From assembly GCA_965247115.1 (NCBI GenBank), contig CBDFGR010000003.1, positions 2,400,001-2,464,000 on the forward strand: 64,000 nt of DNA. The letters run 5' to 3'. A model generated the notes under the pieces. The model had not been told where the DNA came from, ran no database searches, and worked only from the letters and a program-made list of their open reading frames with translations. The translations under genes were made by a program, and so were the position numbers. Below are positions 15,508 to 43,073 of this stretch, one piece after another. Numbering within the stretch: position 1 is the stretch's first letter; every line of letters starts with the position of its first letter. Source of the stretch: Myxococcota bacterium. Its GTDB lineage: Bacteria > Myxococcota_A > UBA9160 > SZUA-336.

Positions 15508-16584
15508 TCAATCCCGCCGCTCTACGTCCAACTGCCCCCGGGGGCAGTGGTCTCGTCTTGCGAAGCGCGCCATGTGGGCAGCTCCGTAGTCCTGCAACGC
15601 CGCGTATTGGTTGTGCCCCCGACAGCGCAGCTCGATTCTGTCCACCGAGTGTCGCCTCGATCGGGCCCAGGGGTCCAGATGATGGAACTCGAGAAAGTCG
15701 CGCGAACCGCAGCGGCGATCGTTCGGCCCGACGAATGCACACCGACCTCCGTCCCGCGCTGCGACTGCACGCTTGATCTCTGCCGGGATGTGTCGAGATG
15801 CGGCCCCGTGCTTCTTCGATACCTCCGACCGAGCTCGGGGTCTCGACGTTCGGGCGAACTTCTTTCGCTTCGCATCATCGAGCAGTAGAGTGAGCGCCCG
15901 ATCGAAGATCTGCGCCAGGTCGCCCTCAGGAACCTGGTGGCGGAGCAGCGCCTGCGCCTCACGCAGCTTGTCGCAGAGCGCCTGGTCGCCCGTGAACTGG
16001 ATCTTGAACCGCTTGCCGCCGAGCGGGCTGGGAACCGGACTCGGTGCGCGAGGCATCGGAGGCGAGGGAGCCGCTTCGCGACTAGGTGCCTCGGGCGCAG
16101 GCTCGGCGATCTTCGACGGCATCCGGACAATCGAGGGAGGCTTGGGGTCCGGAAGCTTCCTGACTTGCGCCGGCACGTCCGGCTTCGGAGCGCGGTCGGC
16201 CAGGAGCTCTTCGATGGCACGCTTGCTCTTGTGGCGCGCCAGGTCTAGTAGCTCCACGTGGTTCTCTGGAGTGAGCTTGGGAGCGAGCAGGTTTGCCCCG
16301 GTCAGGTGAAGCGCCCCCTCACGGAATCGCACGAGCAGAAGCGGATACGCCCGTGCAGCTCGCGCCGCGCCAATCCGGTGAAAGGCCGTCGCCTCTGAGA
16401 AGTGGAGCACCTCGGTGCAGTATCGATACATCGAGGGGTAGCCCTGCTCGAGATAGAGCTTTCGCTTATCAACCTCTGCAAGGTACTCGAGCAGATCCGC
16501 CTCGTCCTTGCGACTCCTTGCTACGAGCTCGTCGAGACCTTGGAGCAGCTTGTAATCGGGAATGGTCTTGGGAGAAACCTCCAT
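15508..16584 (-). CDS. DUF222-like/HNH endonuclease family protein (copy 1)
   Basis: LAEVDKRKLYLEQGYPSMYRYC...FSEATAFHRI N-terminal domain, Pro-rich linker, SRHIPAEIKRAV..RDGGRC...C...LEFHH...LRCRGHNQY. Confidence 0.88.
   Translation of the reverse strand: MEVSPKTIPDYKLLQGLDELVARSRKDEADLLEYLAEVDKRKLYLEQGYPSMYRYCTEVLHFSEATAFHRIGAARAARAYPLLLVRFREGALHLTGANLLAPKLTPENHVELLDLARHKSKRAIEELLADRAPKPDVPAQVRKLPDPKPPSIVRMPSKIAEPAPEAPSREAAPSPPMPRAPSPVPSPLGGKRFKIQFTGDQALCDKLREAQALLRHQVPEGDLAQIFDRALTLLLDDAKRKKFARTSRPRARSEVSKKHGAASRHIPAEIKRAVAARDGGRCAFVGPNDRRCGSRDFLEFHHLDPWARSRRHSVDRIELRCRGHNQYAALQDYGAAHMARFARRDHCPRGQLDVERRD
15528..15548. repeat. palindrome ACTGCCCCCGGGGGCAGT at 3' end of HNH copy 1
   Basis: 18-bp perfect palindrome. 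The 21-mer CCAACTGCCCCCGGGGGCAGT is identical to 16830-16850. Confidence 0.95.
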
Positions 16585-16599
16585 CTGGTGTCTTTCGTT

Positions 16600-16653
16600 C
16601 GGGACCGAGAAGGGGTGAAGCCCGAACGATAGCACGACGTATTTTGGTGTCGG
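16600..16653 (-). promoter_or_regulatory. conserved promoter + leader of HNH copy 1
   Basis: CCGACA-16 bp-(TG)cTATCGT, then TCGGGCTTCACCCCTTCTCGGTCCCG. Aligns with 42020-42072. Confidence 0.65.
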
Positions 16654-16829
16654 AGGATCTGCCACGCCGAGTGATCGAGTACGTGTGATACTCTGAAAAC
16701 GGAATCTGCGCGAACGACTTGCAGAGAGGCGTCACCGCCTCGAGGACCGAACTTCTGCTTCAGCACTCGCTTCGATTCGATCGAGCCCTCAAATTCTGTC
16801 AAGAGCTTTCTTCCTCTTTTCGCAAGAAA

Positions 16830-16851
16830 CCAACTGCCCCCGGGGGCAGTT
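16830..16851. repeat. palindrome AACTGCCCCCGGGGGCAGTT upstream of HNH copy 1
   Basis: 20-bp perfect palindrome at 16832-16851. Confidence 0.95.
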
Positions 16852-16860
16852 CGAATCTAG

Positions 16861-17748
16861 CTAGGAGCTCTCGCTCTCCTGCTTGAGCGTGTTGTAGTAC
16901 TCGAACGCTTCCTGCGGTTGGAAGTCTTCGTGGACCACTTTGCGCACCGCCTGGATCATGGCCAGCGGGTTTTCGGACTGGAAGATGTTGCGGCCCATGT
17001 CCACGCCAGAGGCTCCCTCCTGGATGGCGCGGTATGCGAGTCGCAGCGCGTCGGCCTCGGGGAGCTTCGTGCCTCCGGCGATCACGATGGGTACGGGACA
17101 GCTGGCCGTCACGGTGTCGAAGCCGTCGTCGACGTAGTAGGTCTTCACGTAGGAGGCGCCGAGCTCGGCGCACATGCGCGCGGCGAGGCGCATGTAGCGG
17201 GCGTCGCGTACGAGCTCGCGGCCCACCGCCGTCACGCCGAGCGTCGCGATGCCGTGGCTGTTTCCCAGATCTGCGAGTCGAGTCAGGTTGTGGATGGACT
17301 GGGTCTCGTTCTCGCCGCCGACGAAGACCTGGACCGCCATCGCTGCGGCGTTGAGCCGCACGGCCTCGTCGATGCTGAGCGCGATCTGCTCGTTCGAGAG
17401 CTCCTTCAGGATGCTGGGCCCGCCGCTCGCGCGCAGCACGATCCCCCCGGTGTAGGTCGGAGGGATGACGCTGCGCAGGATTCCGCGGGTCAGCATCAGG
17501 GTGTCGGCGTAGCGGGCCAGCGGCACGATGTTGAGGTCGACACGCTCGAGTCCGCTGGTGGGGCCCTGGAAGTAGCCGTGATCGAAGGCCAGCATGACCG
17601 TGCGGCCCGAGGCGGGGTCGAAGATGTTGGAGAGCCGGTTCTTCAGACCCCAGTCGAGGTTGTTCGAGCCCTTGAGGAAGAACGGCTCGCTCGTCTGGGG
17701 AACGTCGACGAAATACTCCTTGGCGCTCGCTGCGTCTTCCTCGGGCAT
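16861..17748 (-). CDS. lsrF: LsrF-like thiolase / class I aldolase
   Basis: [63 protein letters not shown]. Confidence 0.9.
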
Positions 17749-17771
17749 CGTATTCTCCCCCTCGCGGAACG

Positions 17772-20027
17772 CTAAGAGATCGCCTCGACCCTCGCCCGCA
17801 CGTGCTTGTGCCACGGCGTACCCGCGAACCAGTCGCGGTCCTCGCTCGCCGTGAGTTCGTTTGGCGATGCACCGTGCACCACGCGCGCTCCCTCCCCATC
17901 GGGATACTCGAGCCCGCCACCGTTCGGCAGCGTCACGTGTCCCGCGCGCAGCGTGTCGGTGACCTCGACCACGACGTCGACGGAGCCGCGCTTGGTCGTG
18001 ACGCGGGCCCGGGACCCTGATTGGATGGCGAGCTGCGCGGCATCCTCGGGGCTCACGCGCAGTGCCCCCTCGCGATCCTTCCGCCGCCACGCGGGATCGC
18101 GGAAGATCGTGTTCGCGGTGCTCGTGCGGCGCTCGCCAGCCGCGAGGATGAACGGATACTCCTGGTCTCGCTTGCCCGGGTCCTCCGCGCGGAGCTCGGA
18201 GAGCTCCCGCAGCAACTCGGGGATCGCGAGCTGGATGCGCCCATCCTCGTGCATGCGTGCCAGCGTGTCCTCGTAGTGGTCCCGCGTGACGACGACACCC
18301 GCCGGGGTCGAGAAGATCGCGTCGAAGAGCTTCTCGCCAAGCTCGGGACCGTCGCCCTCGAAGCCCGCGCGCCGGACCGACTCGGGATAGGACGCCGCGC
18401 ATGTATGTGCGGCTCCCCAGAGCAAGGCCGCACTCTCATTCCCCGCGCCCAGGGTGGGTCCGAGCGTGCGGTACAGCACCACCGGCGAGAACTTGCGGAG
18501 CTCGGGCCGTTCGGCCGCGGCGCGCACGAAGGCCGTCTGGAAGGCGGTGCGCCCATCTTTCGCGGCGGCGCGCAGCTCCGCGAGGTCGTCGTCGCAAATC
18601 CCACCTAACGCGTACACGAGTCTGGCGTGAATTTCCGGCTCGGGAAGCGTTCCCTCGAGCGGCTCCAGCAGGGGAGGACGTAGCTGGAAGACGTGGTCGG
18701 GGAAGCCGCCACCAAAGAACGTGGTCTCCCACTTCTCGTACTGCGAGGCAGCGGGCAGCACGTAATCTGCAAGCTGGGCGGTCTCCGTCATGGCCACGTC
18801 GATCACCACGACCAGGTCGAGGGCCTGGAGCGCCTCGCGCATGCGTTTGCTGTCGGCCAGCGAGTGCACCGGGTTGCCGCTCTCGATGAATGCGGCGCGG
18901 AAGCGGTCGGGATGGTCCGTGAGGATCTCATCGGCGATGACGTTGCAGGGGATCAGCCCGGTGATGATCCGGTGGCCGCCGACGGGGGTTCGCGCATCCC
19001 CCCGCGTGTCGCCTGCGAGCTTCCCCATGTGGGTGCCGAGGTTCATCGTTCCGGGCCTGGCAAAGTTGCCCGTCAGCGCGTAGAGGAGCTTCTCGAGGTA
19101 CGAGTTGAGCGTGCTGTGCGGGGCCATCTCGATGCCGAGGTCCTCTACCACGGCGACGCTCTCCGCGCGGCCGATGCGCCGGGCGGCGTCCCGGACCTGC
19201 GCCTCTGGCACGCCCGCGCGCTCGCAGTAGTCGGCGATCGGCACCGACGTCAGCGCATCGATCACGGCCTCGGTCCCGACCCCTCGCTCCGCGAGAAACT
19301 TCTGGTCGAGCAGGTTCTCCTCGACCAGCGCGGCCAGCAGGGCAGAGAGACAGTGGGCGTCCGAGCCGGGTCGCACCTGCAGGTGCACGTCCGCCAGCTC
19401 CGCGGTCTCCGTCCGTCGCGGATCGATCACGATCATCGAGCGCGCCGGATCCCGTGCGATCTCCCTCAACACGATCCGCGCCCGCTCGAAGCCGTGCGAG
19501 TGCCACGGGTTCTTGCCAACGAACACGGCGACCTCTGTCTTTGCGAAGTCGGGCTCGGGACGCCCGCCGAACATGCGGCGCTCGACCCAGAACTCCCCCG
19601 TCTTCTCCTGCGCCAGGGCGTTCGAGCGGTAGACCCCTCCGTAGGCCCGGACGGTCGCGGTGCCGTAGGCCCCGCCCAGGTGATTCCCCTGCCCCCCGCC
19701 CCCGTAGTACAGGATCTTCTCACCGCCCAGCGTGTCGCGAATCTCCGCCAGGCGCGCCGCCACCTCTCGGATCGCGGTATCCCAGTCGATCGGCTCGAAG
19801 CTGCCGTCGGACCTGCGGCGCAGGGGCGTCGTCAGACGGTCCCGGTGGTTCTGGTAGTGATCGAGCCCGGCCTGCTTCTCGCAGGTGTAGCCGAGCGAGC
19901 GCGGGTTGGCGCGATCGCCGCGGATCTTCACGATGTGTCGATCCTCGACTTGAACCTGCAGCCCGCAATTAATGCTGCACAGGATGCACGCCGTGGTCTG
20001 CCAGTCCCCAGCTTGCGTCGTCGCCAT
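17772..20027 (-). CDS. molybdopterin-dependent oxidoreductase
   Basis: [11 protein letters not shown]...YTCEK Fe-S motif, [17 protein letters not shown]-terminal molydop-binding domain (LAAGERR, PNGGG). Confidence 0.92.
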
Positions 20028-20147
20028 GTCCCCTCCCAATCGGCCGCGACACGATGGTACCCGATTGAGAAGACCGCATGGTAGGGTCGCACCAGCAAGT
20101 TCTCAGGTTGACCCGACAAAAGGCCGCGCGTAAGGTCGGTTCCCGTA

Positions 20148-20519
20148 GTGGACAATGCAGGGAAGGGAGAAGTCTTGGTAGCTCACAGCACTCGCGTCGT
20201 CGTCGCACTGTGTGCCGTCGCTCTCATCGCATGCGTGGGGATCACTCCCGAAACCAAGATGAAGATCTCGCAACCCGTGGACTGCTCGTCCGCGTTCGAA
20301 GACATCGCCCACCTGGAGAACGCACACGCCGGGGGAGGGAAGCGCATCTTTCAGGGTCTGATGGGCGTCATGCCCCCGTCGATCATCGTCAGCCTCTTCC
20401 GCGCAGCCGCGAGGGCCCCGGAGGGCATGTACCTGGACCACTGGAGCGTGGCATGGGGAACGTACAACGAGAAGATGGATGACAAGATCGCGTCCATCAG
20501 GCAGAAGTGTGATCTCTAG
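20148..20519 (+). CDS. hypothetical lipoprotein
   Basis: Hydrophobic stretch ending in the LIAC lipobox. Ends 3 bp before the amidase. Start uncertain. Confidence 0.6.
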   Translation: MDNAGKGEVLVAHSTRVVVALCAVALIACVGITPETKMKISQPVDCSSAFEDIAHLENAHAGGGKRIFQGLMGVMPPSIIVSLFRAAARAPEGMYLDHWSVAWGTYNEKMDDKIASIRQKCDL

Positions 20520-20522
20520 CCA

Positions 20523-21974
20523 ATGAGCGACGTTGCCTTCAAGCCTGCGCGAGAGCTCGCGGGGATGCTCCGAGCGCGCGAGATCGGCGCACGCGAGCTG
20601 CTCGACCACTACTTGGAGCGAGTCGAACGCTTCAACCCCGGTCTGAACGCCATCGTCAGCCTCGACGTGGAGCGAGCGCGAAAGCGGGCGGACGAGGCGG
20701 ACGCAGCGCTGGCGCGCGGAGAGGTGTGGGGTCCGCTGCACGGGCTCCCCATGACGATAAAGGAGCTCTTCGAGGTCGAGGGCATGCCCTGGACCTTTGG
20801 CGATCCACAGTTCGCCGAGCGCTTGGCCAACGTGAACTCTCCCGCCGTGCAGAGACTGATCGACGCCGGCGCGGTGATCTTCGGGCTGACGAACTCGCCG
20901 CTGAACGGCATGGACGTCCAGACCTACAACGAGGTGTACGGCACGACGAATAATCCCTGGGACACGTCACGGGCACCGGGCGGCTCTTCCGGCGGTACCG
21001 CGGTGGCGCTCGCGACCGGGCTGAGCGCGCTCGACCTCGGCAGCGACATCGGCGGCTCGATCCGCAACCCCGCCCACTACACCGGCCTCTACGGGCATAA
21101 GCCGAGCCAGGGGATCGTTCCGCGTCGCCGCGTGCGACTGCCTGGGCTCATGGCCGTCGGTGATCTCAGTGTCGCCGGACCGTTGGGACGCAGCGCGGAC
21201 GATCTGGACTTCGAGCTGTCTATCGTCGCTGGAGCGGAGGCCGATCGCGAGATCGCCTGGCGCCTCGAGCTGCCACCTCCTCGGCGCGCGTCACTGCACG
21301 CCTACCGCGTGGCTGCCTGGCTCGACGACCCGGTTGCCCCCGTGGACGCGGGCGTGCGCGAGCGGCTCGAGAGCGCCGTGGAAGCTCTCAGGACGGCAGG
21401 TGTGAGCGTCGACGACAAGGCGCGACCGGAGCTCGAGTTCGCGGAGGTGAACCGCGTGTACCGCTCGCTGCTCACCGCGGCCAGCGCGCAGAGGCTTCCC
21501 GAGGATCAGTTCCGTCTGCTCCTGGAACGGGAAGATGGGCTCCCCAGCGAGGACGCAGAGTCGCCGCCCACCAGGCCGCGCTCGGCGGCCCTGCGCCACC
21601 GCGAGTGGCTGCAGCTGGACGAGACGCGCGAGCAGATGCGGGCGCGCTGGCAACAGTTCTTCGAGCGCTACGATGTCCTGCTCACTCCGGTCACGTCGGT
21701 GACCGCGATTCCCCACGACCACCGCGAGTTCGACAAGCGCTGCATCGTGGTGAACGGCGAGGAGCGCCGCTACTGGGAGCAGATCTCGTGGGTCGGGATC
21801 GCGACCCTCGTGCACCTGCCCGCGTCGGTAGCCCCTGTCGGCCTCAGTGCAGACGGCCTCCCGGTCGGGATCCAGATCATCGCCCCCTACCTGGAGGACC
21901 GCACGGCCATCGACTTCGCGCGGCGCCTGGGCGAGGTCATCGGCGGCTACGAGCCCCCACCCGGCTTCAGCTAG
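20523..21974 (+). CDS. amidase (amidase signature family)
   Basis: GPLHGLPMTIKE, PGGSSGG, LGSDIGGSIRNPA, GLPVGIQ. Confidence 0.93.
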   Translation: MSDVAFKPARELAGMLRAREIGARELLDHYLERVERFNPGLNAIVSLDVERARKRADEADAALARGEVWGPLHGLPMTIKELFEVEGMPWTFGDPQFAERLANVNSPAVQRLIDAGAVIFGLTNSPLNGMDVQTYNEVYGTTNNPWDTSRAPGGSSGGTAVALATGLSALDLGSDIGGSIRNPAHYTGLYGHKPSQGIVPRRRVRLPGLMAVGDLSVAGPLGRSADDLDFELSIVAGAEADREIAWRLELPPPRRASLHAYRVAAWLDDPVAPVDAGVRERLESAVEALRTAGVSVDDKARPELEFAEVNRVYRSLLTAASAQRLPEDQFRLLLEREDGLPSEDAESPPTRPRSAALRHREWLQLDETREQMRARWQQFFERYDVLLTPVTSVTAIPHDHREFDKRCIVVNGEERRYWEQISWVGIATLVHLPASVAPVGLSADGLPVGIQIIAPYLEDRTAIDFARRLGEVIGGYEPPPGFS

Positions 21975-22394
21975 GTCAGCGCTCCGCAAATCAGCACGGT
22001 CGCGTCGTCTTGGGCCTGCTCTAGCTGTCCCGCCGGGACGCCCCAGAGTTCCTTCGCGCGCACCCGGGAATGCAGGCGCTCCTCGAGTCTCGCCCGATCA
22101 ATCAGCCAGTCGGGCTGGGCGCAGCTGGCCGCGCGAGTGGTCGGAAGCAGATGTCCTGACATGTATACGCAATGTGATGGAAGCCCCGACGAGCAAGTAC
22201 CCTTGACAGAACTTCACGCTGTAGGCCTAAATGGCTGGAATTCAAGGGCTCCCCAGATTCGATGGGAGAAACCTCAGCGTTTCGAGGTTCCTCCGTGGGA
22301 GTCCCCGTCCTGTACGAGCTCAGTTGCTACCAACAATTCTTCGGTAGGGTATCCAGATCGTCTCTCTCTTGCGCCGCTCACACGGAGAATGTTG

Positions 22395-25300
22395 ATGAAG
22401 CTCTCGCGGTTCCTGTCCACCCCTATTCGTCTACTCGCGCTTGCATCGTGCGCGGCGGTTCTGGTACTGATCGCACCGCTGGGACCCGGGGCCGCAGCGG
22501 GCCCTGCCAACCTCGGATTCGAGAACGGTCTTGGCCCTTGGCTTCCTGTCCCCGAGCCGTCGGAAGCGATCGTCGTGGTCGGAACCGAGGGCCCGAACCA
22601 GTTTCCCGTCTACGGCGAGGAGGGGGTGGGAGACGTCGACCCCAACCGCGGCAATTTCATGCTGCGGTTGTATACGCCGAGTCTGAATTCAGAGAACTCG
22701 AACCGCGGTGTCACCGGTGTGTTCCAGGTATTCACCCCCGAGACGGACGAACTCACCATCTCGCTGCGGATCTTCTCGTTCGAACCTCGCGGCGACGACA
22801 CGGTCAGGATCGACGTACAGGACCTGGCTGGAAATAGCCTCGGTGAGGACGTCACGTTCAGTGATCCCGATAGCGGACAGCCCTTTTCCGTGCCGATGGT
22901 ACGCGGCTGCGCGGCTGAATGCTCTGGAGCGCCTTGTGAGCTCGTCATCGATGTCGGTAAGCGCCGGGACTTCCTGGATAGTGGTTGGCGAAAGGTTCTG
23001 ATTTCCGGCTTGCCGACCGAACCGGCGACGCCAGTAAGGCTTGTCTATGAGGTGGAGGGCGGTCAGAACGAGGCGCTCGCCACCTGGGCCGTTTGGGACA
23101 GCGTGAACCTGCCACCCGTGGCCAAGTTCACCTTCAATCCGGGCGGCCAGCCTGGGACGCAGTCGCTGGAAGGCGACTACATGGCCTTCGACGGGAGTGA
23201 ATCGTTCGATCCGGACGGCGACCCGCTCACGTTCCTGTGGACGGCGACCGGGAGTACGATCGGGACCTTGACCCTCGAGGGTCCGCTGGCCGCGTTCCAG
23301 TTCCCCGAAGACGATGCGTCCATCGTCGTCACGTTGACCGTCACCGATTCGGAGGGTGCGACGGATAGCGTCTCGACCGGCGAGATCGCTTCGGACGGTA
23401 CCGCCATAGCACCAATCTCCATCGACAACGCAGGGATTCTGCTCAACGCCATCAACGTGGAGGCTCTTCCGGACAGCCAGGCGAACCTGCTCTGTCGCTT
23501 CCTCGACCCGGGCGTCGATGATACGCATACCGCTACACTCGATGTCGGCGGGATCGTCGCGTCCACGCTCCAGGAAGAGAACATCCCCGCTTACTCGAGC
23601 GGCTTCGTGACCGGCGTGCTCAACACCGTGGGGCTATCTCCTACGGACCTCGCAGGCACATGCACCGTCAACGACGACGACGGTGAGAGCAACTTCGATC
23701 CCTTCACCGTACGGATTCTCGATCCGGCCGTCGTGGGGCTCGACCCGGATGCCGAGTTCCCCCGCTTCGAGCCGAACGACTCCTCGCTTCTCGCGACGCC
23801 CCTGTCCGCGGGCTGGACCACCGTATCGAAGCTCGAGACACCTGCCGACATCGACTTCTTCGAGCTCCGGCTCTCCAACGGAGGCGTCCCGCCAACCGGG
23901 ACCGAGTTCAACATCACCGTCGACATGCCGACTGACTACGACGCCATCGTGCTGAGCAAGCCGGTGGAGGGCGCCTCCTCGACACCGTTCGAGAGCGCCC
24001 CGTTCGTCAGCTTTCCGTTCGTGAGCTTTCCGTTCGTAAGCTTTCCATTCGTGAGCTTCCCGTTCGTGAGTTTTCCGTTCGTCAGCTTCCCAGTCGCGAC
24101 CTCGCCCTTCGTGAGCTTTCCGTTCGTGAGTTTTCCGTTCGTGAGTTTTCCGTACGAGGACAGTCCCTTCGTCAGCTTCCCGTTTACCTTTGACCAGTTC
24201 CCGCTTTCGGAGGTTGGGCTCGCTGCGCCGGACGGGAGCAACGTCGCGGGATCGGACCTCGGATTGGGAGAGCTTGGCTCGCTCGATCTCGGAAGCCTCG
24301 CGGCCGACAACCTGCGCGTCAAAGCAATCTCTGCAGGCTTCGGCCAGGAGCGCGCTCTGGTGGAGATGGGGCCGGACGAGCAGGCGCTCTTCCTAGTCGT
24401 CGTCTCTCACGACCTGGGGTTCTCCGACGCCCCCTATTCGATCACGCTAGAGGCTTCCGTACCGTTCGACCAGGTGGCGTTCCTGGGTCAGAACTGCGAT
24501 GCCGAGCCGCTGGTGTCTCCCGCCGTCGGACCGGAGGTGATCCGGCCTCAGGCATCACCGAAGACGCTCTTCGTGACCCAAAAGCCACGCTTCATGGCCA
24601 CACATGACATGAGCGACGCAGAGTGGACCACATGGCTTGCCGCGATGGAGCCACTCTTTGCGCACGACGAGGTCAAGGGCAAGTTCATCTCGGTCGCCAG
24701 TGGCCCTTTCGATGCCTGGGATCAGAAACCCTGCGACATCGCCCCACTTCGGGCGGCCGCGGCTGCGGTGCGGACCGAGGTTCTGAACGCGCTCGAGCCC
24801 AGTATCGAGTACGTAGTCATCGTCGGAAGCATGGACGTGATTCCCCCCGAACTGAAGCCCGACCAGACCACTATTGGCTTCGAAGGACTCTTCGCAACAG
24901 ATCTTCCGGCGCGTCCCGAGTCGCCAATAGCGGCGATTCTCCGTGCGGGACAGACCATTACCGACGCCTGTATGGTCGATGCGAATCCGCTTCAGTTCTT
25001 CGGGGGAGAGCTCTGTATGGAGGACCTGCCCATCTGGCGGCTTGTAGAGACGCCGCAGGAGATCCTGTTCGAGGCGAGCAACTTCGTGGCGAGGGACGGG
25101 ATGCTGACGCTCAACTCCGCCCTCGTCACTGGCTACGAGTTCTTTTCGGACTACGCAACCAACGCGGCGAGCGCGCTGGTCGCTGCCGGGATAGCCACGG
25201 ATGTGCTCAACGATACGAGCGAACCGGGCGACGAGTGGACCGCAGACGAGCTGCGCAATGAATGGTGTGCGGCGCCGATCCATGACCTGAACGCCGTCAA

Positions 25301-30573: not shown

Positions 30574-30596
30574 CTCGGTTCGCGTATGCTGGAGCC

Positions 30597-32395: not shown

Positions 32396-32399
32396 GCGG

Positions 32400-32804: not shown

Positions 32805-33000
32805 GTCTCTGCCCCCGTCTGTCAGGTTCTTCGGTACATTCACGTCGCGCCCCAAGGGACTCTGAGGTTCGCCTGCTAGACTCGGCCGCTGCGGTCCACG
32901 CCGAACTGGCAATGGCTCGCTCGAGCCGCGGATCGAGGAAGGCTGAGTTACGCCCCGCCTGTTCCGTCGCCGCCAGGTCTCGCTGCCCACGCTCTGGGGC

Positions 33001-33639: not shown

Positions 33640-33703
33640 CGGTCCCCCTTGCGTGCCCCTGGTGGGCACTCCATCTTCCCACGCTCGCCGAGCTGGAGCG
33701 GAC

Positions 33704-35002: not shown

Positions 35003-35102
35003 CTTAGGGACGGTCCTTAATCATAACTTTTCTGACTACCTGCGCGGTACGCGGTCACCGATCGAGAGAAGTTATGATTAAGGACCGTCCCTAAGTTATG
35101 TC
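34996..35102. repeat. 107-bp REPIN-like hairpin (34-bp perfect inverted arms)
   Basis: GACATAACTTAGGGACGGTCCTTAATCATAACTT (34996-35029) and its reverse complement (35069-35102). Confidence 0.95.
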
Positions 35103-35165
35103 CGTCAGGTTTTGGCCCTCGTATCTGGTATATGCTGCGGAGCGCATCAGGACAGGGAGAGGTCG

Positions 35166-36914
35166 ATGATCGGACGGGTCGCGGTTGTGGTGGCGCTTGT
35201 ACTCGGGGTTTCGGGGACTGTTTCGGGGCAGGAGCAGCAGCTCAGCGTCGAGATCGAGCTGCCGCCTCTACCGACGCACTGGCCGGCGAGCGAGCCGGTC
35301 GGGGAGGGTGCGGGACCGGTGAGCGATCGCATGCTGCGCGAGGCGCCGGGTCCGAGTCGCTGGCTGCTTTACGGTGGGAACTACCGGAACTACAGGCACT
35401 CGCCGCTCCAGAGCCTGAACCCGGAGAGCGTGAGGGATCTGCGCGTCGCCTGGGCGCTGCCGACCGGAACCAACGGACAGTTCGAGGTCTCTCCCGTCAT
35501 CTACGACGGCGTCATGTACGTGAGCACGTCCTACAACCGGCTGTTCGCCCTCGATGCGAAGACGGGCGAGCTCCTGTGGCGTTACGACCACCAGCAGCCC
35601 CCACGGCTGCGAATGTGCTGCGGCCCCGTGAACCGCGGGGTGGCCATTGCGGGCGACCTCGTGCTGATGGCAACGCTCGACGCGAAGCTGATCGCCTTCC
35701 ACCGAAGAACGGGCGAGATCGTCTGGTCCATCGAGATCGCGAATTTCGAGGATGGCTTCAGCGCTACGTCCGTTCCGCTCGTCGTGGGAGATCTCGCGGT
35801 GATCGGGATTGCCGGAGGGGAATACGGCGTGCGCGGCTTCTTCGACGCGTACGAGGTGTCCAGCGGACGGCGGGTCTGGCGCCACTACACCGTGCCCGGC
35901 GAGGGCGAGCCCGGCGCCGAGTCGTGGGCCGGCGACTCCTATAAGAATGGCGGCGCGCCCGCGTGGACGAGCGGCGCCTATGATGCCGACACCGACACGC
36001 TGTACTGGACTACCGGCAATCCCGCGCCGGACTGGAACGGCGACCTGCGCGCGGGGGACAACCTCTTCTCCAACTCGCTGCTCGCCGTCGAGATGAAGAG
36101 CGGCAAGCGCAAGTGGCACTTTCAGTACACGCCTCACGACGTCTGGGACTACGACGGGAACACGCAGATCTTCCTGGTGGACGTAGAGCGCAACGGGACG
36201 ATCGTAAAGGCCGTCGCTCAGGCAAACCGCAATGGCTACTTCTACCTGATCGACCGGGAGAACGGCGAGTTCTTGCTGGCGGAGCCCTACGTCGAGCAGG
36301 TCAACTGGGCCACCATCGACGACGCGGGCCGCCCCGTTGTGAACCCTGCCGCGCTCCCGAAGCTCGAGCCGACGGAGCGCGTCTGCCCGAGCAACTTCGG
36401 CGGGATGAACGGCGCGTGGACGGGCGCCTACAACCCGGATCTCGGCCTTGCCTACATCCCCTCGGTGGAGGCCTGCCAGCTGTTCGCGAAAGGCATCGTC
36501 ACCTTCATCAAGGGGATTCCCTATCTCGGCGGCCTGCCCGAGGCCGTAGATGCGATCGAGGGCAGGGCATACGGGCACATCTCGGCCATCGACGTCGCCA
36601 CGGGCAAAGTTCGGTGGCGACACCGGGATGCGTATCCCATGATGGGCGGTGTGCTCAGCACCGCGGGCGGTGTGGTGTTCACGGGCAACCTGACGGGCAG
36701 CGCCCTCGCGCTGGACGCGGCCACGGGCGAGCAGCTCTGGAGCTTCAGGATGGGAGGCGGCGTGCGGAGTCAGCCCGTCGCCTACGAGCTCGACGGCCAG
36801 ACCTACGTCGCGATCGGTTCGGGCAGCTTCGCCCCGATTGACGCGTTCGCGGGCGGTCTGGACAGGAACCCGGAGGGTGGGCACCTGTTCGTCTTCGCGC
36901 TCCCCAAGCGGTGA
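35166..36914 (+). CDS. PQQ-dependent alcohol dehydrogenase (methanol/ethanol family)
   Basis: Vicinal CC (MCCGPVNRG), GGEYG, GNPAP, PHDVWDYDG, Trp-docking repeats, signal peptide. Confidence 0.93.
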   Translation: MIGRVAVVVALVLGVSGTVSGQEQQLSVEIELPPLPTHWPASEPVGEGAGPVSDRMLREAPGPSRWLLYGGNYRNYRHSPLQSLNPESVRDLRVAWALPTGTNGQFEVSPVIYDGVMYVSTSYNRLFALDAKTGELLWRYDHQQPPRLRMCCGPVNRGVAIAGDLVLMATLDAKLIAFHRRTGEIVWSIEIANFEDGFSATSVPLVVGDLAVIGIAGGEYGVRGFFDAYEVSSGRRVWRHYTVPGEGEPGAESWAGDSYKNGGAPAWTSGAYDADTDTLYWTTGNPAPDWNGDLRAGDNLFSNSLLAVEMKSGKRKWHFQYTPHDVWDYDGNTQIFLVDVERNGTIVKAVAQANRNGYFYLIDRENGEFLLAEPYVEQVNWATIDDAGRPVVNPAALPKLEPTERVCPSNFGGMNGAWTGAYNPDLGLAYIPSVEACQLFAKGIVTFIKGIPYLGGLPEAVDAIEGRAYGHISAIDVATGKVRWRHRDAYPMMGGVLSTAGGVVFTGNLTGSALALDAATGEQLWSFRMGGGVRSQPVAYELDGQTYVAIGSGSFAPIDAFAGGLDRNPEGGHLFVFALPKR

Positions 36915-37726
36915 CGCTCGGGCGGGCCGCGCTGCTCCTGGTTCTGGCGCTCGGCTGGCCGTCACACGTGCACGGCGCCGGGACGCTGAGGGTCTGCCTG
37001 CACGAAGACGACCCGCCCCGCTCGGAGCGGGCCGGAGACCGTGGCTTCGACGTCGCTGTGATGAGCCAGCTTGCCGGTCGGATCGAGCGGAGCTTCGAGC
37101 CTGTCTGGATCCAGACCCCACCCACGATGACAGAGGTCGAGGAGTCTGACCTGCCGCTCGCCGACCTGGTGCGGGGTCGCTGCGACGCGCTCGCCTCCGT
37201 TCCCGGCGAGCTGGCGCTCGGCTCCCACGCCAGGCGAATCGCGCTCTCGCGCCCGTACTACGGAGCCGGGTTCGAGCTCGTCGGCCCCGACAGCCTCCCG
37301 AACGACCTGCGTCAGCTCCAAAGCACGCGCATCGGCGTGCGCAGCGTGAGCGTTGCGCACTTGGTGCTCGTGTCCCTCGGCGTGGAGTGGTCGGGGCGCA
37401 AGACAGCCGCGGAGCTACTGGCTGCGCTCAAGGCAGGTGAGGTGGACGGTGCGCTGGTCTGGGGCCCCTCGCTGGCGACGCTTGGTGGACGCCCGAAGGA
37501 GGACTGGGTGCCTCCCGCCGCACTGCGCTGGAACCTGCACCTCGCCACTCGCAAGATGGACCCACTGACGGCCGAGCTCGACAACGTGCTCGGCCGGCTG
37601 ATCCGATCGGGTGAGGTCACGCGCTTGCTCGAGTCGCACGGCATCCCGCTGCACGCTCCCTTCACCACGGACTTCTCGCACGCCGAGCTCGAACTCTTCA
37701 TGAATCGGGAGGCCGACCTGCGGTGA
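36911..37726 (+). CDS. substrate-binding periplasmic protein (MxaJ/XoxJ-like)
   Basis: LRVC...PP.S...GFDVAV, GRCD, SRPYY, DGALVWGP. GTGA overlap with the dehydrogenase. Confidence 0.8.
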   Translation: MTLGRAALLLVLALGWPSHVHGAGTLRVCLHEDDPPRSERAGDRGFDVAVMSQLAGRIERSFEPVWIQTPPTMTEVEESDLPLADLVRGRCDALASVPGELALGSHARRIALSRPYYGAGFELVGPDSLPNDLRQLQSTRIGVRSVSVAHLVLVSLGVEWSGRKTAAELLAALKAGEVDGALVWGPSLATLGGRPKEDWVPPAALRWNLHLATRKMDPLTAELDNVLGRLIRSGEVTRLLESHGIPLHAPFTTDFSHAELELFMNREADLR

Positions 37727-38100
37727 GCCGACTCCCGCTCGCAGCCCTTGCACTCTGCCTGCTGGGCCTGGCTTGCGGGACGACTCCCGACGCGGAACCC
37801 ACTCCCCTCGATACCTTCACTGCCGACCCGGAGGCCCTCCTGCGCGGCAAGGGCCTCTTCATCGGGATGTGCGGCGGCTACTGTCACGCTCGCAAGCCCG
37901 GCACCCGCCCCGCCCCGGACCTTTTCGACTGCATCTGGAAGCACGGCGGCAGCCCCGACGAGATCTACACGACCATCTCGAACGGCGTCCCAAACACCCA
38001 GATGATGAGCTACGGCGGCCTGCTCCCCGAAGGCGACGACGACATCTGGAAGATCATCGCCTTCCTAAAAACCGACTCCCGCTGCGAAACCGGAACCTAG
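37723..38100 (+). CDS. c-type cytochrome lipoprotein with CxxxCH motif
   Basis: LGLAC lipobox, GKGLF..MCGGYCH, APDL.D..WKHGG, GVPNTQM, IWKIIAFL. Confidence 0.82.
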   Translation: MSRLPLAALALCLLGLACGTTPDAEPTPLDTFTADPEALLRGKGLFIGMCGGYCHARKPGTRPAPDLFDCIWKHGGSPDEIYTTISNGVPNTQMMSYGGLLPEGDDDIWKIIAFLKTDSRCETGT

Positions 38101-38102
38101 GG

Positions 38103-38209
38103 GGGATAACTTGGGGACGGTCCTTAATCATAACTTGTCGCGACCAGTAGCTGCGAACCGCATACGCGAGCTGACAAGTTATGATTAAGGACCGTCCCCA
38201 AGTTATCCC
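38103..38209. repeat. 107-bp REPIN-like hairpin (37-bp perfect inverted arms)
   Basis: GGGATAACTTGGGGACGGTCCTTAATCATAACTTGTC (38103-38139) and its reverse complement (38173-38209). Confidence 0.95.
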
Positions 38210-38255
38210 GTGGTATCACCGAGCGAGCGGCGGGCTTGCTGTGGGAGGAGGCGGC

Positions 38256-38705
38256 ATGGGCATCGAGATCAGCGCGTTGTACGTGCGGCGGAGCAGTCTG
38301 ATCCAGGCGACGCCGGAGCGCGTATGGCAGGAGTTCACGTCGTTCGATCGGCTCGCCGCCTGGTTTGGTCGGGGACATCAGCTCGAGGCTTATGAGCCCG
38401 AGCTGGGGGGGCAGGTCCGGCTCAGCGTGGAGATCGACGGAGCCAAGCGCCCTTTCGGCGGACCGATCCTGAGCTTTGAGCCGGCCCGCGAGCTCACGTT
38501 CTCGAACAACTGGGAAGCGGACGGCTGGCCGGTTCCGACGCTCATCACCCTCCGCCTCACGCCGCTCTACGACGCTTGCCACGGCGAGCTCTTCCACCAC
38601 GGCTTCGAACGCCTCGGCAGCGACGCGGGCGCCGAGCTCCAGGGCTACGAGGCGGGCTGGGACGCCCATCACCTGGAAGCCCTCAAGGCGCTCGTCGAAG
38701 GGTAG
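38256..38705 (+). CDS. SRPBCC / Aha1-like protein
   Basis: IQATPERVW..FT....LAAW, EPARELTF, HHGF, GWDAHHLEALK. RBS GGAGGAGG. Confidence 0.85.
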   Translation: MGIEISALYVRRSSLIQATPERVWQEFTSFDRLAAWFGRGHQLEAYEPELGGQVRLSVEIDGAKRPFGGPILSFEPARELTFSNNWEADGWPVPTLITLRLTPLYDACHGELFHHGFERLGSDAGAELQGYEAGWDAHHLEALKALVEG

Positions 38706-38715
38706 ATACGGAACG

Positions 38716-39618
38716 CTAGCTACCGGGGAGCAGCTCACCCAGGTTCAGGTTCCTGTGTCCGCCGAACTTCTCGAGCAACGGGAAGTCGCGCGGGCGAACG
38801 TCGAGCCGGGCCAGGGGTCGCACGGGCTTCGAGCTCTGGAACTCGAGCGAGTTCAGTCCGATCGGGTCCCGCGCCATCCGATCGAACGACTCCGGCCTCA
38901 GCACGTACACCGATCCGTCGATGAAGATCGACGGATCGGCGCTGAGGAAGTCCTGTCCGATCGAGAACTGGTAGAGCCGCACCTCTCCTCTGGTGGAGGG
39001 CAGCGGGATCACCTCGTTGTGGAAGCTCCCCCGATAGCGGGACCGATCCAGGATCGCGAAGGCCATGGCCCACAGACCGTCGGCGCAGGCGGAGACGGCC
39101 GGCCCGCTCTGCTGCTGGGTCGGTCCGAGCGTCTGGCCGCGCGACTCGAACGCCAGGATGTCTCGCTCGTTCGAGCCGTGAAAGAGCAGCCCCTTCTCCT
39201 CGGAGAGATAGGACAGGAACTGGTGACGTGGGTAGGCGAGCCTGTACTCGATCCGTTCCCCGTTGGCGTCGCGCATGTCCTCGTAGAGCGTCTCGAACGC
39301 AAAGTCGCGCGCGGCGTCATGCGCTCGCGCGGGAGCGAGCGTATAGGTGGGCGGATCCGCGTCCGGGTGCGGCGGGAATGCGAGCGCTTCCCCGAGCCGC
39401 AGCCTTGCTACGCGGCCGGCGGAGTCCCGTTCGAAGTGGATCCGCGCGCCGGCCAGCGGTCCGGTCTCGATGCAAAACGCGTCCTCACCGTCGCTGGTGA
39501 GCGTCCCGTCGAGCCACTGCGGTGCGCCAGGGAACCGAAACACGAGCCCGACGTCGCGCTCGTCGATCTGGAGCCCTGGAGCGCCGTACTCCCCGTAGCG
39601 GCCCACGTAGTCAGACAT
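38716..39618 (-). CDS. hypothetical protein
   Basis: Fills the gap downstream of the acyl-CoA dehydrogenase-like gene. LFHGSN and WAMAFAILDR motifs. Confidence 0.65.
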   Translation of the reverse strand: MSDYVGRYGEYGAPGLQIDERDVGLVFRFPGAPQWLDGTLTSDGEDAFCIETGPLAGARIHFERDSAGRVARLRLGEALAFPPHPDADPPTYTLAPARAHDAARDFAFETLYEDMRDANGERIEYRLAYPRHQFLSYLSEEKGLLFHGSNERDILAFESRGQTLGPTQQQSGPAVSACADGLWAMAFAILDRSRYRGSFHNEVIPLPSTRGEVRLYQFSIGQDFLSADPSIFIDGSVYVLRPESFDRMARDPIGLNSLEFQSSKPVRPLARLDVRPRDFPLLEKFGGHRNLNLGELLPGS

Positions 39619-39657
39619 GCCCCACCCCCCGCGGGCGCGGAGCATAGCACCTCGGCC

Positions 39658-40845
39658 TCAGAGGATCGGCGACTGAGAGTCCAGACCCAGGAGCACGCGC
39701 CCGCCGGCCTCGATCCACTGAGGCGACACCATGAGTTGTTGGGGCACCACCCGCACGTTGCGCATGTAGCGCTCGAGCGGACTGCTCAGGAAGTTTGCGG
39801 ACGCGCCCGCCGCGCTGTGGACCAGGTTGACGGCGCGGATCGAAGCAGCCGCCGCGTTCGAGCACGCGAGCTGCAGCAGCGCCCGCTGCTTCTGGCTCAC
39901 TTGTCCACTCGCCAGCGCGATCTCCCAGATCTCTGCCACGCTCTCGAACACCCAGGCGCGCGCAGAGCGCAGCTGGATCTCCGCCTCTGCGACCGCGAGC
40001 TGAGCGGTGGCGCGTTCCCGCAGCAGGTTCCGAGAGGCACGCGGTGTCTTGGCAGACGCGAGCTCTACGAAGTGGTCGACAGCCGCGCGAGCGATCCCGG
40101 TCGACACCCCGACCTTGTTGTAGGCGAGCCGGCTGAAGACCGGCAAGCGGAAGAGCGGCCCGCTCGCGAGGAGCCCGCGCGAGCCCAGCGCTGTGGTCAT
40201 GCGCTCTGGCACGAACACGTCCTGCACACGCACGTCGTGGCTGCCCGAGCCCCGCAGGCCTGCGACATGCCAGGTATCGAGCACCTCGAAATACCGCGCA
40301 GGGACCAGCACTTCGCGCAGAACTACCTGCCCGTGCTCGTTGCGGGCGTTCTGGTCCCCGTCCTGGATAATGCATGCACCCCAGAAGTACTGGGCGTTCT
40401 GACAGCCGCTGGCAAAGGGCCACTGCCCCGTCACCCGGAAGCCCCCGTCGACCGGGATGGCCTTGCCCAGCGGGTTCAGGGCTGCCGCGATGACCAGCGC
40501 GGGATCCGCAAAGACCTCCTTCGCGACCTCGGTGGACAGAGCCGCGCCGACGAAGCCGACAGCCTCGATGCCGATCATCAGGTTCCAGCCGGTCGCGCCG
40601 TCGGCTTCGGAGACCGCCTCGATCACCCGGATCTGCGTGAACGGATCGGTCTCCAGACCGCCCACCTCGCGTGGCGCCGCGACCCGATACAGCTCGGCAG
40701 CCGTCATGGCGTCGACCACGGGCTTCGGCAGCCTGCGCTCTCGCTCCGCCTGGTCCGCGTGCTCCCGTATCAGAGGCGTCAGGGCCCGCGCCCGGGCCAG
40801 GACATCGTCGGCGGGCGCAAACGGGGATTCGCTTGTGGCAGGCAC
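39658..40845 (-). CDS. acyl-CoA dehydrogenase family / flavin-dependent monooxygenase (HsaA-like)
   Basis: GGFRVTGQWPFASGC, DTWHVAGLRGSGSHD, LERYMRN. Start uncertain. Confidence 0.87.
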   Translation of the reverse strand: MPATSESPFAPADDVLARARALTPLIREHADQAERERRLPKPVVDAMTAAELYRVAAPREVGGLETDPFTQIRVIEAVSEADGATGWNLMIGIEAVGFVGAALSTEVAKEVFADPALVIAAALNPLGKAIPVDGGFRVTGQWPFASGCQNAQYFWGACIIQDGDQNARNEHGQVVLREVLVPARYFEVLDTWHVAGLRGSGSHDVRVQDVFVPERMTTALGSRGLLASGPLFRLPVFSRLAYNKVGVSTGIARAAVDHFVELASAKTPRASRNLLRERATAQLAVAEAEIQLRSARAWVFESVAEIWEIALASGQVSQKQRALLQLACSNAAAASIRAVNLVHSAAGASANFLSSPLERYMRNVRVVPQQLMVSPQWIEAGGRVLLGLDSQSPIL

Positions 40846-40897
40846 CGGGAGAGTATAAACGGAATGCGCGACCTGCCGCGGATGGGGAAGGGACTCG

Positions 40898-41890
40898 ATG
40901 AAAGTGCTGGTAGCCGGGGGAGCGGGATACATCGGGAGCCACTGCGTCCGTCAGCTGATCTCTCACGGGCACGAGCCAGTCGTCGTGGACAACCTGGCGT
41001 ACGGCCATCGAGCGACCGTCCCTTCCGGCGTGCCGTACTACGAAGCGAGCCTCGGCGATCGCGAGCGCGTGTCTGCAATCCTGAACGACGAGGCGATCGA
41101 GGCCGTCATGCACTTCGCGGCCTTCTGCTACACGGGCGAGTCGGTTCGGGAGCCACTCTTGTACTACGAGAACAACGTGGTGGAGACGGTGCGACTGCTG
41201 AGCGCCATGCTCGAGCGTGGCGTGCACAGGTTCGTCTTCTCCTCCAGCTGCGCGACGTACGGCGAGCCGGAGACCATGCCGATCACGGAAGATGCGCCAC
41301 AACGTCCCATCAACCCCTACGGGCAGACCAAGCTCGACGTCGAGAACTTGCTGCGCAGTCTGGCGCGCGCGCACGGCCTGGCCTCGGCCTCGTTCCGCTA
41401 CTTCAACGCCGCGGGCGCGGCCGAGGACGGCAGCATCGGGGAGGACCACGATCCCGAAACGCATCTGATTCCCCTTGCAATCGCGGCGGCCTGCAAGAGG
41501 GGCCCCGAGCTCTCCATCTTCGGCAGCGACTACGACACACCGGACGGCACCTGCTTGCGCGACTACACGCACGTCGACGATCTGTGTCGAGCCCACGTCC
41601 GGGTGCTCTCCGAGCTCGACCACGAAGGAAGCTGCCTCTTCTACAACCTGGGCACGGGACGGCCCAGCTCCGTGCGCGAGGTCATCGAGTCGGTCGCGAG
41701 AGTCACGAGCAAGCAGGTCCCCACGCGGGAGGCGGCGCGCCGCCCAGGCGACCCCCCCATCCTGTACGCCGATCCCGCAAAAGCCCAGCGCGAGCTCAGC
41801 TGGCAGCTCCGCTATCCAGAGCTGGACACCATCGTAGAAACCGCATGGCGCTGGCACCGCGATCACCCCGAAGGCTACGCCTCGGGCTGA
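40898..41890 (+). CDS. galE: UDP-glucose 4-epimerase
   Basis: GGAGYIGSH, HFAA, FSSSCATYG, YGQTK, RYFNAAG, ETHLIP, DGTCLRDY. Confidence 0.93.
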   Translation: MKVLVAGGAGYIGSHCVRQLISHGHEPVVVDNLAYGHRATVPSGVPYYEASLGDRERVSAILNDEAIEAVMHFAAFCYTGESVREPLLYYENNVVETVRLLSAMLERGVHRFVFSSSCATYGEPETMPITEDAPQRPINPYGQTKLDVENLLRSLARAHGLASASFRYFNAAGAAEDGSIGEDHDPETHLIPLAIAAACKRGPELSIFGSDYDTPDGTCLRDYTHVDDLCRAHVRVLSELDHEGSCLFYNLGTGRPSSVREVIESVARVTSKQVPTREAARRPGDPPILYADPAKAQRELSWQLRYPELDTIVETAWRWHRDHPEGYASG

Positions 41891-41950
41891 TCCCCACAAA
41901 CCCGACGACCCTCCGCCTGCGCGCGCGGCAACAATGCGTCTCGACTAACC

Positions 41951-41972
41951 CAACTCTCCCCGGGGAGAGTTG
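41951..41972. repeat. palindrome CAACTCTCCCCGGGGAGAGTTG upstream of HNH copy 2
   Basis: 22-bp perfect palindrome. Confidence 0.95.
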
Positions 41973-42019
41973 AATGGAAGAACGGCTCTCCGTGCGGAAC
42001 GGTGTCCGGCGCCCAATCG

Positions 42020-42072
42020 TTGACACCGAACTGCGTTATGCTATGTTTTGGTCTTCATCCCACTCGGTCCCG
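42020..42072 (+). promoter_or_regulatory. sigma70-like promoter + conserved leader of HNH copy 2
   Basis: TTGACA-16 bp-(TG)cTATGTT, then TTGGTCTTCATCCCACTCGGTCCCG. Confidence 0.7.
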
Positions 42073-42083
42073 TCGAGAGGTTG

Positions 42084-43073
42084 ATGACCATGCTCGCGAC
42101 TCTTGCGAACTCGGAGCTACTCCGAGCACTTCGCCAGCTCGTGGCCAAGGACCGGGTCGTCGAGGCGGACATTCTCACTCATCTGGGCGAGGTCGACGCG
42201 CGTCGGCTCTACCTCGCCGAGGGCTGTCCCTCCATGTTCCGCTTCTGTACAGACGTCCTTCACTTCTCGGAGGCTACGGCCTTTCACCGGATCCGCGCAG
42301 CCAGGGTCGGTCGCGCGTATCCGATCGTGCTGGAGCGGGTCCGCCGAGGAGAGATCCACCTGGCTGGAATCACGCTGCTCGCACCTCATCTCACTCCGGA
42401 GAATCAAACGCAGCTGCTGGACTTGGCGAGGCACAAGAGCAAACGGGCGATCGAGGAGCTTTTGGCCGCTCGGGCTCCGAGGCCCGAGGTCAGAGCGCTT
42501 GTGCGGAAACTACCGGAGACGAGGACTCGTCGATTTCCGAACTCGCCGGGTCGACCCGCGCAGGTGGCTTCCGCAGCCCGCACGAAGACCCCCGCGCCAG
42601 AGCCGCTGGGGGAGAGACGGTTCAAGATCCAGTTCACGGCAAGCCAGGCGCTGTACGAGAAGCTCCGCGACGTGCAGGCGCTGCTGCGGCATCAGATTCC
42701 GAACGGAGAGCTTGCGGAGGTCTTCGATCGGGCACTCACTCTGCTGCGGGACGATGCACGGCGAAAGAAGTTCGCGGAGACCTCGAGGCCGCAACGGCAG
42801 TCTGCGATGCCAGTCAAGAAGAGAGGCGCGACGCGACACATTCCGGCTGAGATCAAGAGGGCCGTGGCCTCCAGGGATGGCGGACGGTGCGGTTTCGTGA
42901 GTCGGAATGGGCGCCGCTGCGATTCAGTCGACTTCGTCGAGTACCACCACATCAGCCGTTGGTCGGGGTCCAGGTGTCACTCGGTGGCGGGGATCGAGCT
43001 GCGGTGTCGCCCCCACAACCAGTACGCGGAGCACCAGCGTCAGCCAGCTCTCCCCGGGGAGAGCTGGAGCTAG
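42084..43073 (+). CDS. DUF222-like/HNH endonuclease family protein (copy 2)
   Basis: Colinear with copy 1 (EVDARRLYL..G.PSMF, FSEATAFHRI, RHIPAEIKRAV, RDGGRC, EYHH, LRCRPHNQY). Start 42084 or 42090. Confidence 0.88.
   Translation: MTMLATLANSELLRALRQLVAKDRVVEADILTHLGEVDARRLYLAEGCPSMFRFCTDVLHFSEATAFHRIRAARVGRAYPIVLERVRRGEIHLAGITLLAPHLTPENQTQLLDLARHKSKRAIEELLAARAPRPEVRALVRKLPETRTRRFPNSPGRPAQVASAARTKTPAPEPLGERRFKIQFTASQALYEKLRDVQALLRHQIPNGELAEVFDRALTLLRDDARRKKFAETSRPQRQSAMPVKKRGATRHIPAEIKRAVASRDGGRCGFVSRNGRRCDSVDFVEYHHISRWSGSRCHSVAGIELRCRPHNQYAEHQRQPALPGESWS
43044..43067. repeat. palindrome CCAGCTCTCCCCGGGGAGAGCTGG at 3' end of HNH copy 2
   Basis: 24-bp perfect palindrome inside the last codons. 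Confidence 0.95.

Follow-up and report, generated by a model that had tools for sequence, protein, structure and literature searches.

A DUF222-like/HNH gene between cognate 20-bp palindromes: a candidate selfish mobile unit in Myxococcota

Introduction

Genes that join a DUF222 domain to an HNH nuclease domain rank with the most common of the multicopy genes that still lack an explanation in soil bacteria. Those known in mycobacteria as REP13E12 repeats are described, in the accessible part of one account (PMC13061034), as having no defined function and being prone to gene conversion. Two further systems offer points of comparison: the RAYT genes, which available portions of two studies (PMC3337134; PMC3116915) present as nuclease genes under purifying selection, flanked by extragenic palindromes specific to each protein, and the homing concept, in which, according to excerpted text of another study (PMC13565253), TnpB restores IS200/605 copies after their excision. 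Here we analyse two DUF222-like/HNH genes in a 64,000-nucleotide stretch of a Myxococcota bacterium (assembly GCA_965247115.1, contig CBDFGR010000003.1, positions 2,400,001 to 2,464,000; hereafter the window), copy 1 at 15508..16584 on the minus strand and copy 2 at 42084..43073 on the plus strand, each lying between its own matching pair of palindromes.

The feature is real and the system undescribed, and its mechanism is one that we infer. No published account of a palindrome-bounded HNH architecture was found in the literature searched, whose coverage stopped short of subscription papers and supplements. The comparisons below lead us to lean, without great confidence, towards a selfish mobile unit: its palindromes are likely bound by the protein that it encodes, which would cut nearby (both putative activities), host repair then joining the ends.

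Results

A multicopy gene with cognate palindromic ends

Both open reading frames (ORFs) and the four palindromes reported by the first-pass annotation were confirmed from the sequence. Copy 1 (358 amino acids, an open ORF) carries an exact 21-bp repeat at 15528-15548 and 16830-16850; its left (5') palindrome, AACT GCCCCC GGGGGC AGTT, occupies 16832..16851, about 258 bp ahead of the start codon, and its right (3') palindrome, with the same inner sequence, occupies 15530..15549. Copy 2 (329 amino acids, also an open ORF, with a shortened C terminus) encodes a protein 58% identical to that of copy 1 and lies between perfect palindromes of 22 bp (41951..41972, inner sequence CTCCCC) and 24 bp (43044..43067). 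As had been claimed, and as translation confirms, both right palindromes fall within the final codons, being read as the C-terminal residues HCPRGQLDVERRD and PALPGESWS directly before the stop.

By tblastn, the genome of the window (G000) holds 14 loci (U1-U14; copy 1 is U1 and copy 2 is U7), 52-80% identical to copy 1 and all intergenic between host genes, of which U8, U13, and U14 are broken. We confirmed that the unit holds no DDE, HUH, or recombinase gene, and a transposase gene is found inside 0/14 units. A 5' palindrome is present in 13/14 copies, mostly about 265 bp ahead of the start, and a 3' palindrome is recognizable in 14/14, sometimes degenerate, about 70 bp past the HNH motif. 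The palindromes fall into five inner types (GCC, GGT, AT/GT, TT, and CT), and the type is identical at both ends of every copy except U11, a mosaic. A strict scan of the 5.17-Mb genome returned 20 palindrome sites, 14 at gene copies and 6 elsewhere, 5 of these plausible; the same scan of 5 Mb of second-order Markov sequence returned 1 site, and the palindromes are therefore not due to chance. The suggestion that palindromes had been seeded in solo form on a large scale does not stand, with about 5 solos genome-wide; a solo palindrome at C2:1346979 has a right tail.

Across genomes, 237 loci had a match, from which 171 distinct loci were kept for the analysis of end motifs. The common end motif is palindromic over 20 bp, AACT-N5-YR-N5-AGTT (frame AACT-N6/N6'-AGTT), with at least 25 inner variants. 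The fixed core proposed earlier, CCCCGGGG, is not the invariant. Constant instead are the flanking AACT…AGTT and a pyrimidine-purine (YpR) step at the centre, which occurs in 93/93 typed sites though the motif left the centre free. Among loci with enough flank the palindrome was found upstream in 51/132 and downstream in 66/147, against 3/2640 shuffles and 1/386 distant flank blocks. The two ends are cognate in 28 of the 31 loci in which both were seen (permutation mean 3.8; 0/5000 permutations reached 28).

Homology between paralogues sets in at the left palindrome of copy 1, and in general it stops near the palindromes at no fixed base (left, about -100 to +60; right, 0 to +190). No general target duplication was found, flank identity at the two ends being 33% vs. 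a background of 28%; the palindrome as a duplicated target site was rejected from the comparison of sites in a sister genome (below), and LTR-like (long terminal repeat) end copying as a rule was unsupported among 57 loosely typed pairs (direct better in 30, inverted in 20, tie in 7). In three loci (L186, L217, and L223) the left palindrome is a direct copy of the unit's own 3' end, together with 10-25 preceding bases, and some palindromes are mirror-extended to 28-42 bp.

Protein domains and residue-base co-variation

The copy 1 protein has a DUF222-like helical N-terminal domain (about residues 8-136) containing the helix SE..A.H69RI, then a Pro-rich linker, a ribbon-helix-helix (RHH)-like segment at 187-246, a weakly supported label, and a Zn/HNH domain (C282, C292, E299, H301, H302, C321, H324, and N325). 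Relatives form a family of 18,330 clusters at E<=1e-3, mostly unnamed. The DUF222-like/HNH identity given by the first-pass annotation holds in part: HNH is matched weakly by copy 1 (E 0.02) and by 68/104 relatives, and DUF222 is matched by 10/104 relatives at E<0.01, by the N-terminal domain alone in 27/50 relatives at E<1 (best 2e-5), and by 12-23% of the members of neighbouring Atlas clusters, but by neither window protein. The copy proteins have no NCBIfam or PADLOC match, and the window proteins no RuvC match. The names helix-turn-helix and RHH for residues 55-100 and 187-246 are labels that we assumed and that profile searches left neither confirmed nor excluded; neither segment has a significant sequence match in the PDB. 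The middle segment matched ParD in 3/50 relatives at E 0.06, and its hhalign comparison with a genomic ParD-like protein gave a probability of 0.4%.

The catalytic residues are under purifying selection. H302, H324, C282, and C292 are present in 138/138 sequences and N325 in 137/138, and the ratio of nonsynonymous to synonymous change (dN/dS) is 0.25 among 10 intact paralogues and 0.16 in the HNH domain. Pairs resident at sites shared with the sister genome give 0.22 (U5), 0.19 (U6), and 0.19 (U7); their synonymous divergence (pS) is host-like for U5, and 0.44 and 0.49 for U6 and U7, vs. a host range of about 0.17-0.43.

Co-change between protein and palindrome was tested in 91/93 typed loci, two with a gapped helix being dropped. 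Mutual information and a spanning-tree test both single out residue 69 of the helix SE..A.xRI, which co-changes with palindrome base 7 (z 4.19, ranking first of 289 columns on the edges of the spanning tree, 1/150 permutations): glycine goes with G in 13/13, histidine with C in 13/14, asparagine with T in 25/34, and lysine with A in 11/19. Residues 95/96/98 are weaker candidates for base 8, and a held-out copy from the sister genome (L029) has R69 with a GGT-type end, as in U3/U9. The RHH strand was rejected as specificity determinant, lying outside the top columns for bases 5-8. Together with the agreement of the ends at 28/31 loci, the pairing of residue 69 with base 7 upholds the earlier claim that the palindromes are cognate and have co-diverged with their proteins. 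The hairpin recognition proposed with it is less favoured than duplex reading by a dimer: the co-variation falls in the N-terminal helix, outside the HNH domain, which favours the duplex, and binding of the duplex by a dimer would be the simplest expectation for a site that is perfectly two-fold symmetric, flexible at its centre, and read by residues that change with it.

Empty, occupied and reversed sites in a sister genome

A second genome of the same genus (G002), with flanks 81-92% identical, allowed comparison at 13/14 sites of G000. The gene is absent at 9/13, in the same orientation at 3 (U3, U5, and U6), and reversed at 1 (U7), which, with the 14 copies in G000, supports the claim of a selfish multicopy unit. 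The two window junctions, at which the first-pass annotation had proposed a search for empty sites, differ. At moaD/lsrF (U1) the HNH gene is absent and moaD and the aldolase are nearly adjacent, with one CT-type palindrome and an apparent collapsed one; galE/FAH (U7) is occupied by the closest relative of copy 2 (73% amino acid identity) in opposite orientation, and in each of the two genomes the FAH boundary carries a CT-type palindrome. Sites U9, U11, and U13 are empty in G002 (25, 134, and 6 bp) and hold no palindrome; because U9 and U13 are closed to 25 and 6 bp in this way, the palindromes must travel with the unit. Other DNA replaces the unit at U2, U4, and U10, and end remnants of another palindrome type are found at U8 and U14, the latter reversed. 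Conversely, a degraded G002 copy lies opposite an empty G000 site, and another lies opposite a solo right end. At least 4/8 G002 copies are broken, and insertion sequence (IS) copies adjoin several G002 units.

Relatives are distributed patchily, in 5/31 related genomes, 29/225 genomes of the class, and at least 25/301 of the phylum; record titles are mainly of Myxococcota, with some of Armatimonadota, and no relatives were found in viral contigs, plasmids, or phages. We found no clear link to nonhomologous end joining, with Ku in 12/29 element-bearing vs. 61/196 other class genomes (compared by hand). For this clade we found neither a general lack of palindromes at homologs, nor palindromes equally frequent beside unrelated genes, nor vertical conservation of the loci, each of which had been named beforehand as counting against a mobile system.

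Leaders, tails and neighbours of the window copies

The leader between left palindrome and gene is conserved across copies, with TTGACAG and a promoter-like block. In copy 1 it spans 16585..16831 (minus strand) and contains a T-rich block with TTGACAG (16796-16802) and the promoter-like block (16625-16653). Copy 2 has a short leader, also present in the G002 copy, and a sigma70-like promoter read from the sequence, TTGACA-N16-TATGTT, at 42020..42047 (plus strand). Apart from the palindrome, no RNA fold is conserved in the leaders, nor do they match Rfam; a structured RNA was rejected for lack of such a fold. Past the right palindrome of copy 1, the 3' tail (15400..15529, minus strand) contains the stop codon and is common to other copies over a varying 25-130 bp, so that the right end is imprecise.

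Host neighbours assigned by Pfam are a ThiS/MoaD-like gene (15098..15394, plus) and a DeoC/LsrF-like aldolase (16861..17760, minus) around copy 1, and an NAD-dependent epimerase (galE-like; 40898..41890, plus) and a fumarylacetoacetate hydrolase (FAH) family gene (43070..43906, minus), whose stop adjoins the right palindrome, around copy 2. The convergent setting described for both window copies is correct for them, but among all 14 copies a crude codon-score call finds both neighbours convergent in only about 6/14 and the right neighbour pointing toward the unit in 11/14. Likewise, TGGA-NN-TAG does follow both right palindromes in the window, but the full set of 14 copies does not generally have it; its TAG is distinct from the stop codon of copy 1, and in copy 2 shares bases with the stop of FAH. 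We also asked whether the 60 bp separating galE from copy 2 derive from a reversed 3' end; the match is weak, 84/2000 shuffles being as good.

Palindromes and repeats away from intact units

Left-end stubs without a gene (palindrome plus a short piece of leader) occur at L315:1441-1608 in G002, opposite an empty G000 site, and at C2:490976-491045 in G000. Related palindromes lie directly 5' of host genes at L307:1501 and L301:1501 in G002, one of them also at C3:300819 in G000, and are possible co-opted sites. In both genomes, the interval separating an AcrB-like gene from a thioesterase gene holds cargo that lacks an HNH gene and is enclosed by CT-type palindromes: a DUF4160 pair, an IS110 fragment, and a ParD-like gene in G000 (L292:1877-3532 = C3:1479376-1481031), and, in G002 (L311/L313, C31:325223-326932), a VapBC-like pair and an IS110 fragment together with three palindromes and 45-bp direct repeats. 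These could be nonautonomous cassettes or could reflect targeting of the palindromes by IS110. A further genome (G010, L016:880-1240) has three direct copies of a segment made of 3' end plus palindrome, one pair enclosing about 270 bp that resemble a gene fragment, in array-like accretion.

Other repeats share these genomes. A 1.29-kb DUF772/DDE IS (L292:3877-5025) has about 30 near-identical copies in G000, where it interrupts U13, and about 40 matches in G002, where it lies directly beside three units. A 70-bp dispersed family resembling repetitive extragenic palindromic (REP) sequences, at more than 100 places in G000 (e.g., L029:3185-3262), is unrelated to the end palindromes.

Discussion

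We propose that the unit, 1.1-1.4 kb comprising a palindrome, a promoter leader, the DUF222-like/HNH gene, and a second palindrome, is gained and lost at intergenic sites. A dimer would likely bind both cognate palindromes through the N-terminal helix, and the nuclease, on its long linker, would likely nick or cut at or around both, freeing a unit with ragged ends and making the sites recombinogenic. Host recombination or end repair could then insert, flip, excise, or copy the unit, or join it to an older palindrome. Old palindromes would probably serve as landing pads, and this would explain why remnants of other types share these sites and how chimeric copies and head-to-tail junctions arise. 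An additional role of the upstream palindrome is probably that of operator or insulator. Cutting at palindromes followed by host repair would account for imprecise ends, reversal, mosaics, other-type remnants, and cargo between palindromes. That a dimer binds duplex DNA, that DNA is cut, and that host recombination or end repair does the joining are all steps that we infer, and homing or conversion among copies is a likely addition that would explain selection on resident copies.

Several observations weigh against this proposal. Close relatives have copy 1 at its site in 4/4 sequencing runs from four studies, no credible excision or inversion joints were found in 4 contig sets from sequencing runs, no RNA run was listed as carrying the sequence, and no recent near-identical palindrome-bearing paralogues were found. 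The sole recent burst seen, in genome G444, comprises about a dozen copies at 97-100% identity that have no end palindromes and lie beside a DDE transposase; we therefore rejected it as evidence for HNH-driven mobility, and it implies that these genes can spread without palindromes. (There, at L336:2402-5012, the amplified relative has a C-terminal UBA/RuvA-like tail, the transposase is ISAs1-type, and some copies are cut by an apparent group II intron end.) The middle Asn of the H-N-H motif is found in only 59/138 sequences and in neither window copy, and purifying selection at a single resident site, as in the U5 pair, is unexplained by simple cut-and-paste. For the residue-base code, the spanning-tree analysis covered six labels, and correction for these brings its result to about 0.04; only 4 pairs entered the tree-based pair test (p 0.125); and U14 (R69 with a CT-type end), L274 (K69 with CGCCCC), and the left end of U11 are exceptions. 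Palindromes occur at both ends in only 27/112 loci with complete flanks, in a set whose loci are not independent and on which the motif itself was defined; a further set of 37 loci, most of them more remote, yielded a palindrome by a motif-free rule in only 8. Several copies in G010 start immediately inward of the place where a left palindrome is missing; these, with the left palindromes copied from 3' ends, may be signs of head-to-tail junctions.

The main rival takes the palindromes to be only operators plus a terminator-like insulator that repress a toxic nuclease gene, spread being due to horizontal transfer, transposases in trans, and illegitimate recombination. The left palindrome does lie immediately ahead of the promoter leader, in copy 1 it is also scored as a terminator, an operator would account for the cognate co-variation just as well, the ends are imprecise, and both the G444 copies traveling with a DDE transposase and the IS copies beside several G002 units offer a vehicle. 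We nevertheless judge this rival unlikely, if serious, because homology ends at the palindromes, the galE/FAH reversal has one at its boundary, 0/14 units contain a transposase, and the 3' ends copied leftward, the mirror-extended palindromes, and the palindrome-bracketed cargo point to DNA breakage there. Less likely again is a homing-type cycle in which the unit excises between its palindromes, leaving a solo site that the nuclease cuts in empty alleles for gene conversion to refill. Purifying selection at shared sites with pS above the host range for U6/U7 suggests re-invasion, and solo or remnant palindromes at 3/9 gene-less G002 sites and the tailed solo at C2:1346979 would suit such a cycle; yet U9, U11, and U13 are clean empty sites without a palindrome, the remnants differ in type from the G000 copy, the presumed cutting site is present in the unit twice and intact, and the tail past the right palindrome travels with it.

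That the nuclease is beneficial or addictive to the host, acting in defence or abortive infection and kept by cell-level selection as paralogues of varied specificity, strikes us as very improbable: dN/dS of about 0.2 in place and the toxin-antitoxin cargo between related palindromes agree with it, but there is no PADLOC or NCBIfam match, 3/14 copies in G000 and at least 4/8 in G002 are broken, and the genes are scattered singly and patchy among kin. We give least credence to the mechanism suggested by the first-pass annotation, in which single-strand hairpin ends are cut and moved as in REP/RAYT systems, seeding many solo repeats. The palindromes fold at -7 to -10 kcal/mol and their types are protein-specific, as the available portion of one RAYT study reports (PMC3337134), but the analogy breaks down on the defining points of an HUH enzyme, a single-copy gene, and many solo repeats: here there is no HUH/Y motif, the gene is multicopy, solos number about 5, no REPIN doublets occur, and the central base pair, though free, is always YpR.

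If the selfish mobile unit is accepted, we tentatively go one step further, to a possibility we would not yet call probable: that these units represent a new class of mobile element, in which an HNH nuclease mobilizes DNA between cognate 20-bp palindromes through an amino-acid-to-base code, its sites flipping segments and collecting cargo such as toxin-antitoxin genes. Within the literature searched, the palindromes are the first concrete DNA substrate proposed for DUF222-HNH genes, and they come with natural cognate and noncognate pairs and a candidate specificity residue. The proposal, if true, would provide the first mechanism for REP13E12-type repeats, and the element class would be thousands of protein clusters strong. 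Were the protein to move the unit, HNH would join DDE, HUH, and the recombinases as a mobilizing chemistry; a compact nuclease whose 20-bp site can be tuned would also be of practical interest.

Among known systems, the closest kin are the DUF222/HNH genes of mycobacterial REP13E12 repeats (PF02720 + PF01844), by a weak DUF222 match of the N-terminal domain in relatives, a C-terminal HNH domain, and multiple copies, as far as the accessible text of two sources describes them (PMC10589994; PMC13061034). The element here differs in that its clade, of a Myxococcota type, has shorter proteins and one more segment, RHH-like; in the literature searched, no cognate 20-bp palindromes or residue-base code are described for REP13E12 repeats. 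REP/REPIN-RAYT systems are alike in their extragenic location and purifying selection, in that protein-specific palindromes flank a nuclease gene, and in that the copies are each divergent, like co-resident RAYTs; they differ in having an HUH/Y1 enzyme in place of an HNH with conserved Zn-HNH residues, and a single-copy, nontransposing gene in place of a multicopy one with empty sites, whereas the present unit has few solo repeats and perfect palindromes, one of them within coding sequence. HNH homing endonucleases and TnpB/IscB homing share a ββα-metal nuclease, a long (20-bp) site that protein would read, and selfish spread via host repair, but this element carries its presumed site twice and intact, has many unrelated sites per genome, and lacks TnpA; filled alleles hold two intact palindromes and the empty U9, U11, and U13 none, unlike a homing endonuclease gene, where insertion destroys a site that is intact in the empty allele. 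Any homing here would be protein-guided, no guide RNA having been found, in contrast to the TnpB concept, and the absence of an Rfam match, a conserved leader fold, and a RuvC match sets the unit apart from OMEGA/HEARO. Classical IS elements (DDE, HUH, serine/tyrosine recombinase, or IS110) have catalytic domains of which none is present here, and the imprecise ends and lack of general target duplication also separate the unit from them; it nonetheless resembles them in its size of 1-1.5 kb, its single gene, an N-terminal domain that would read the ends, and its nonautonomous remnants.

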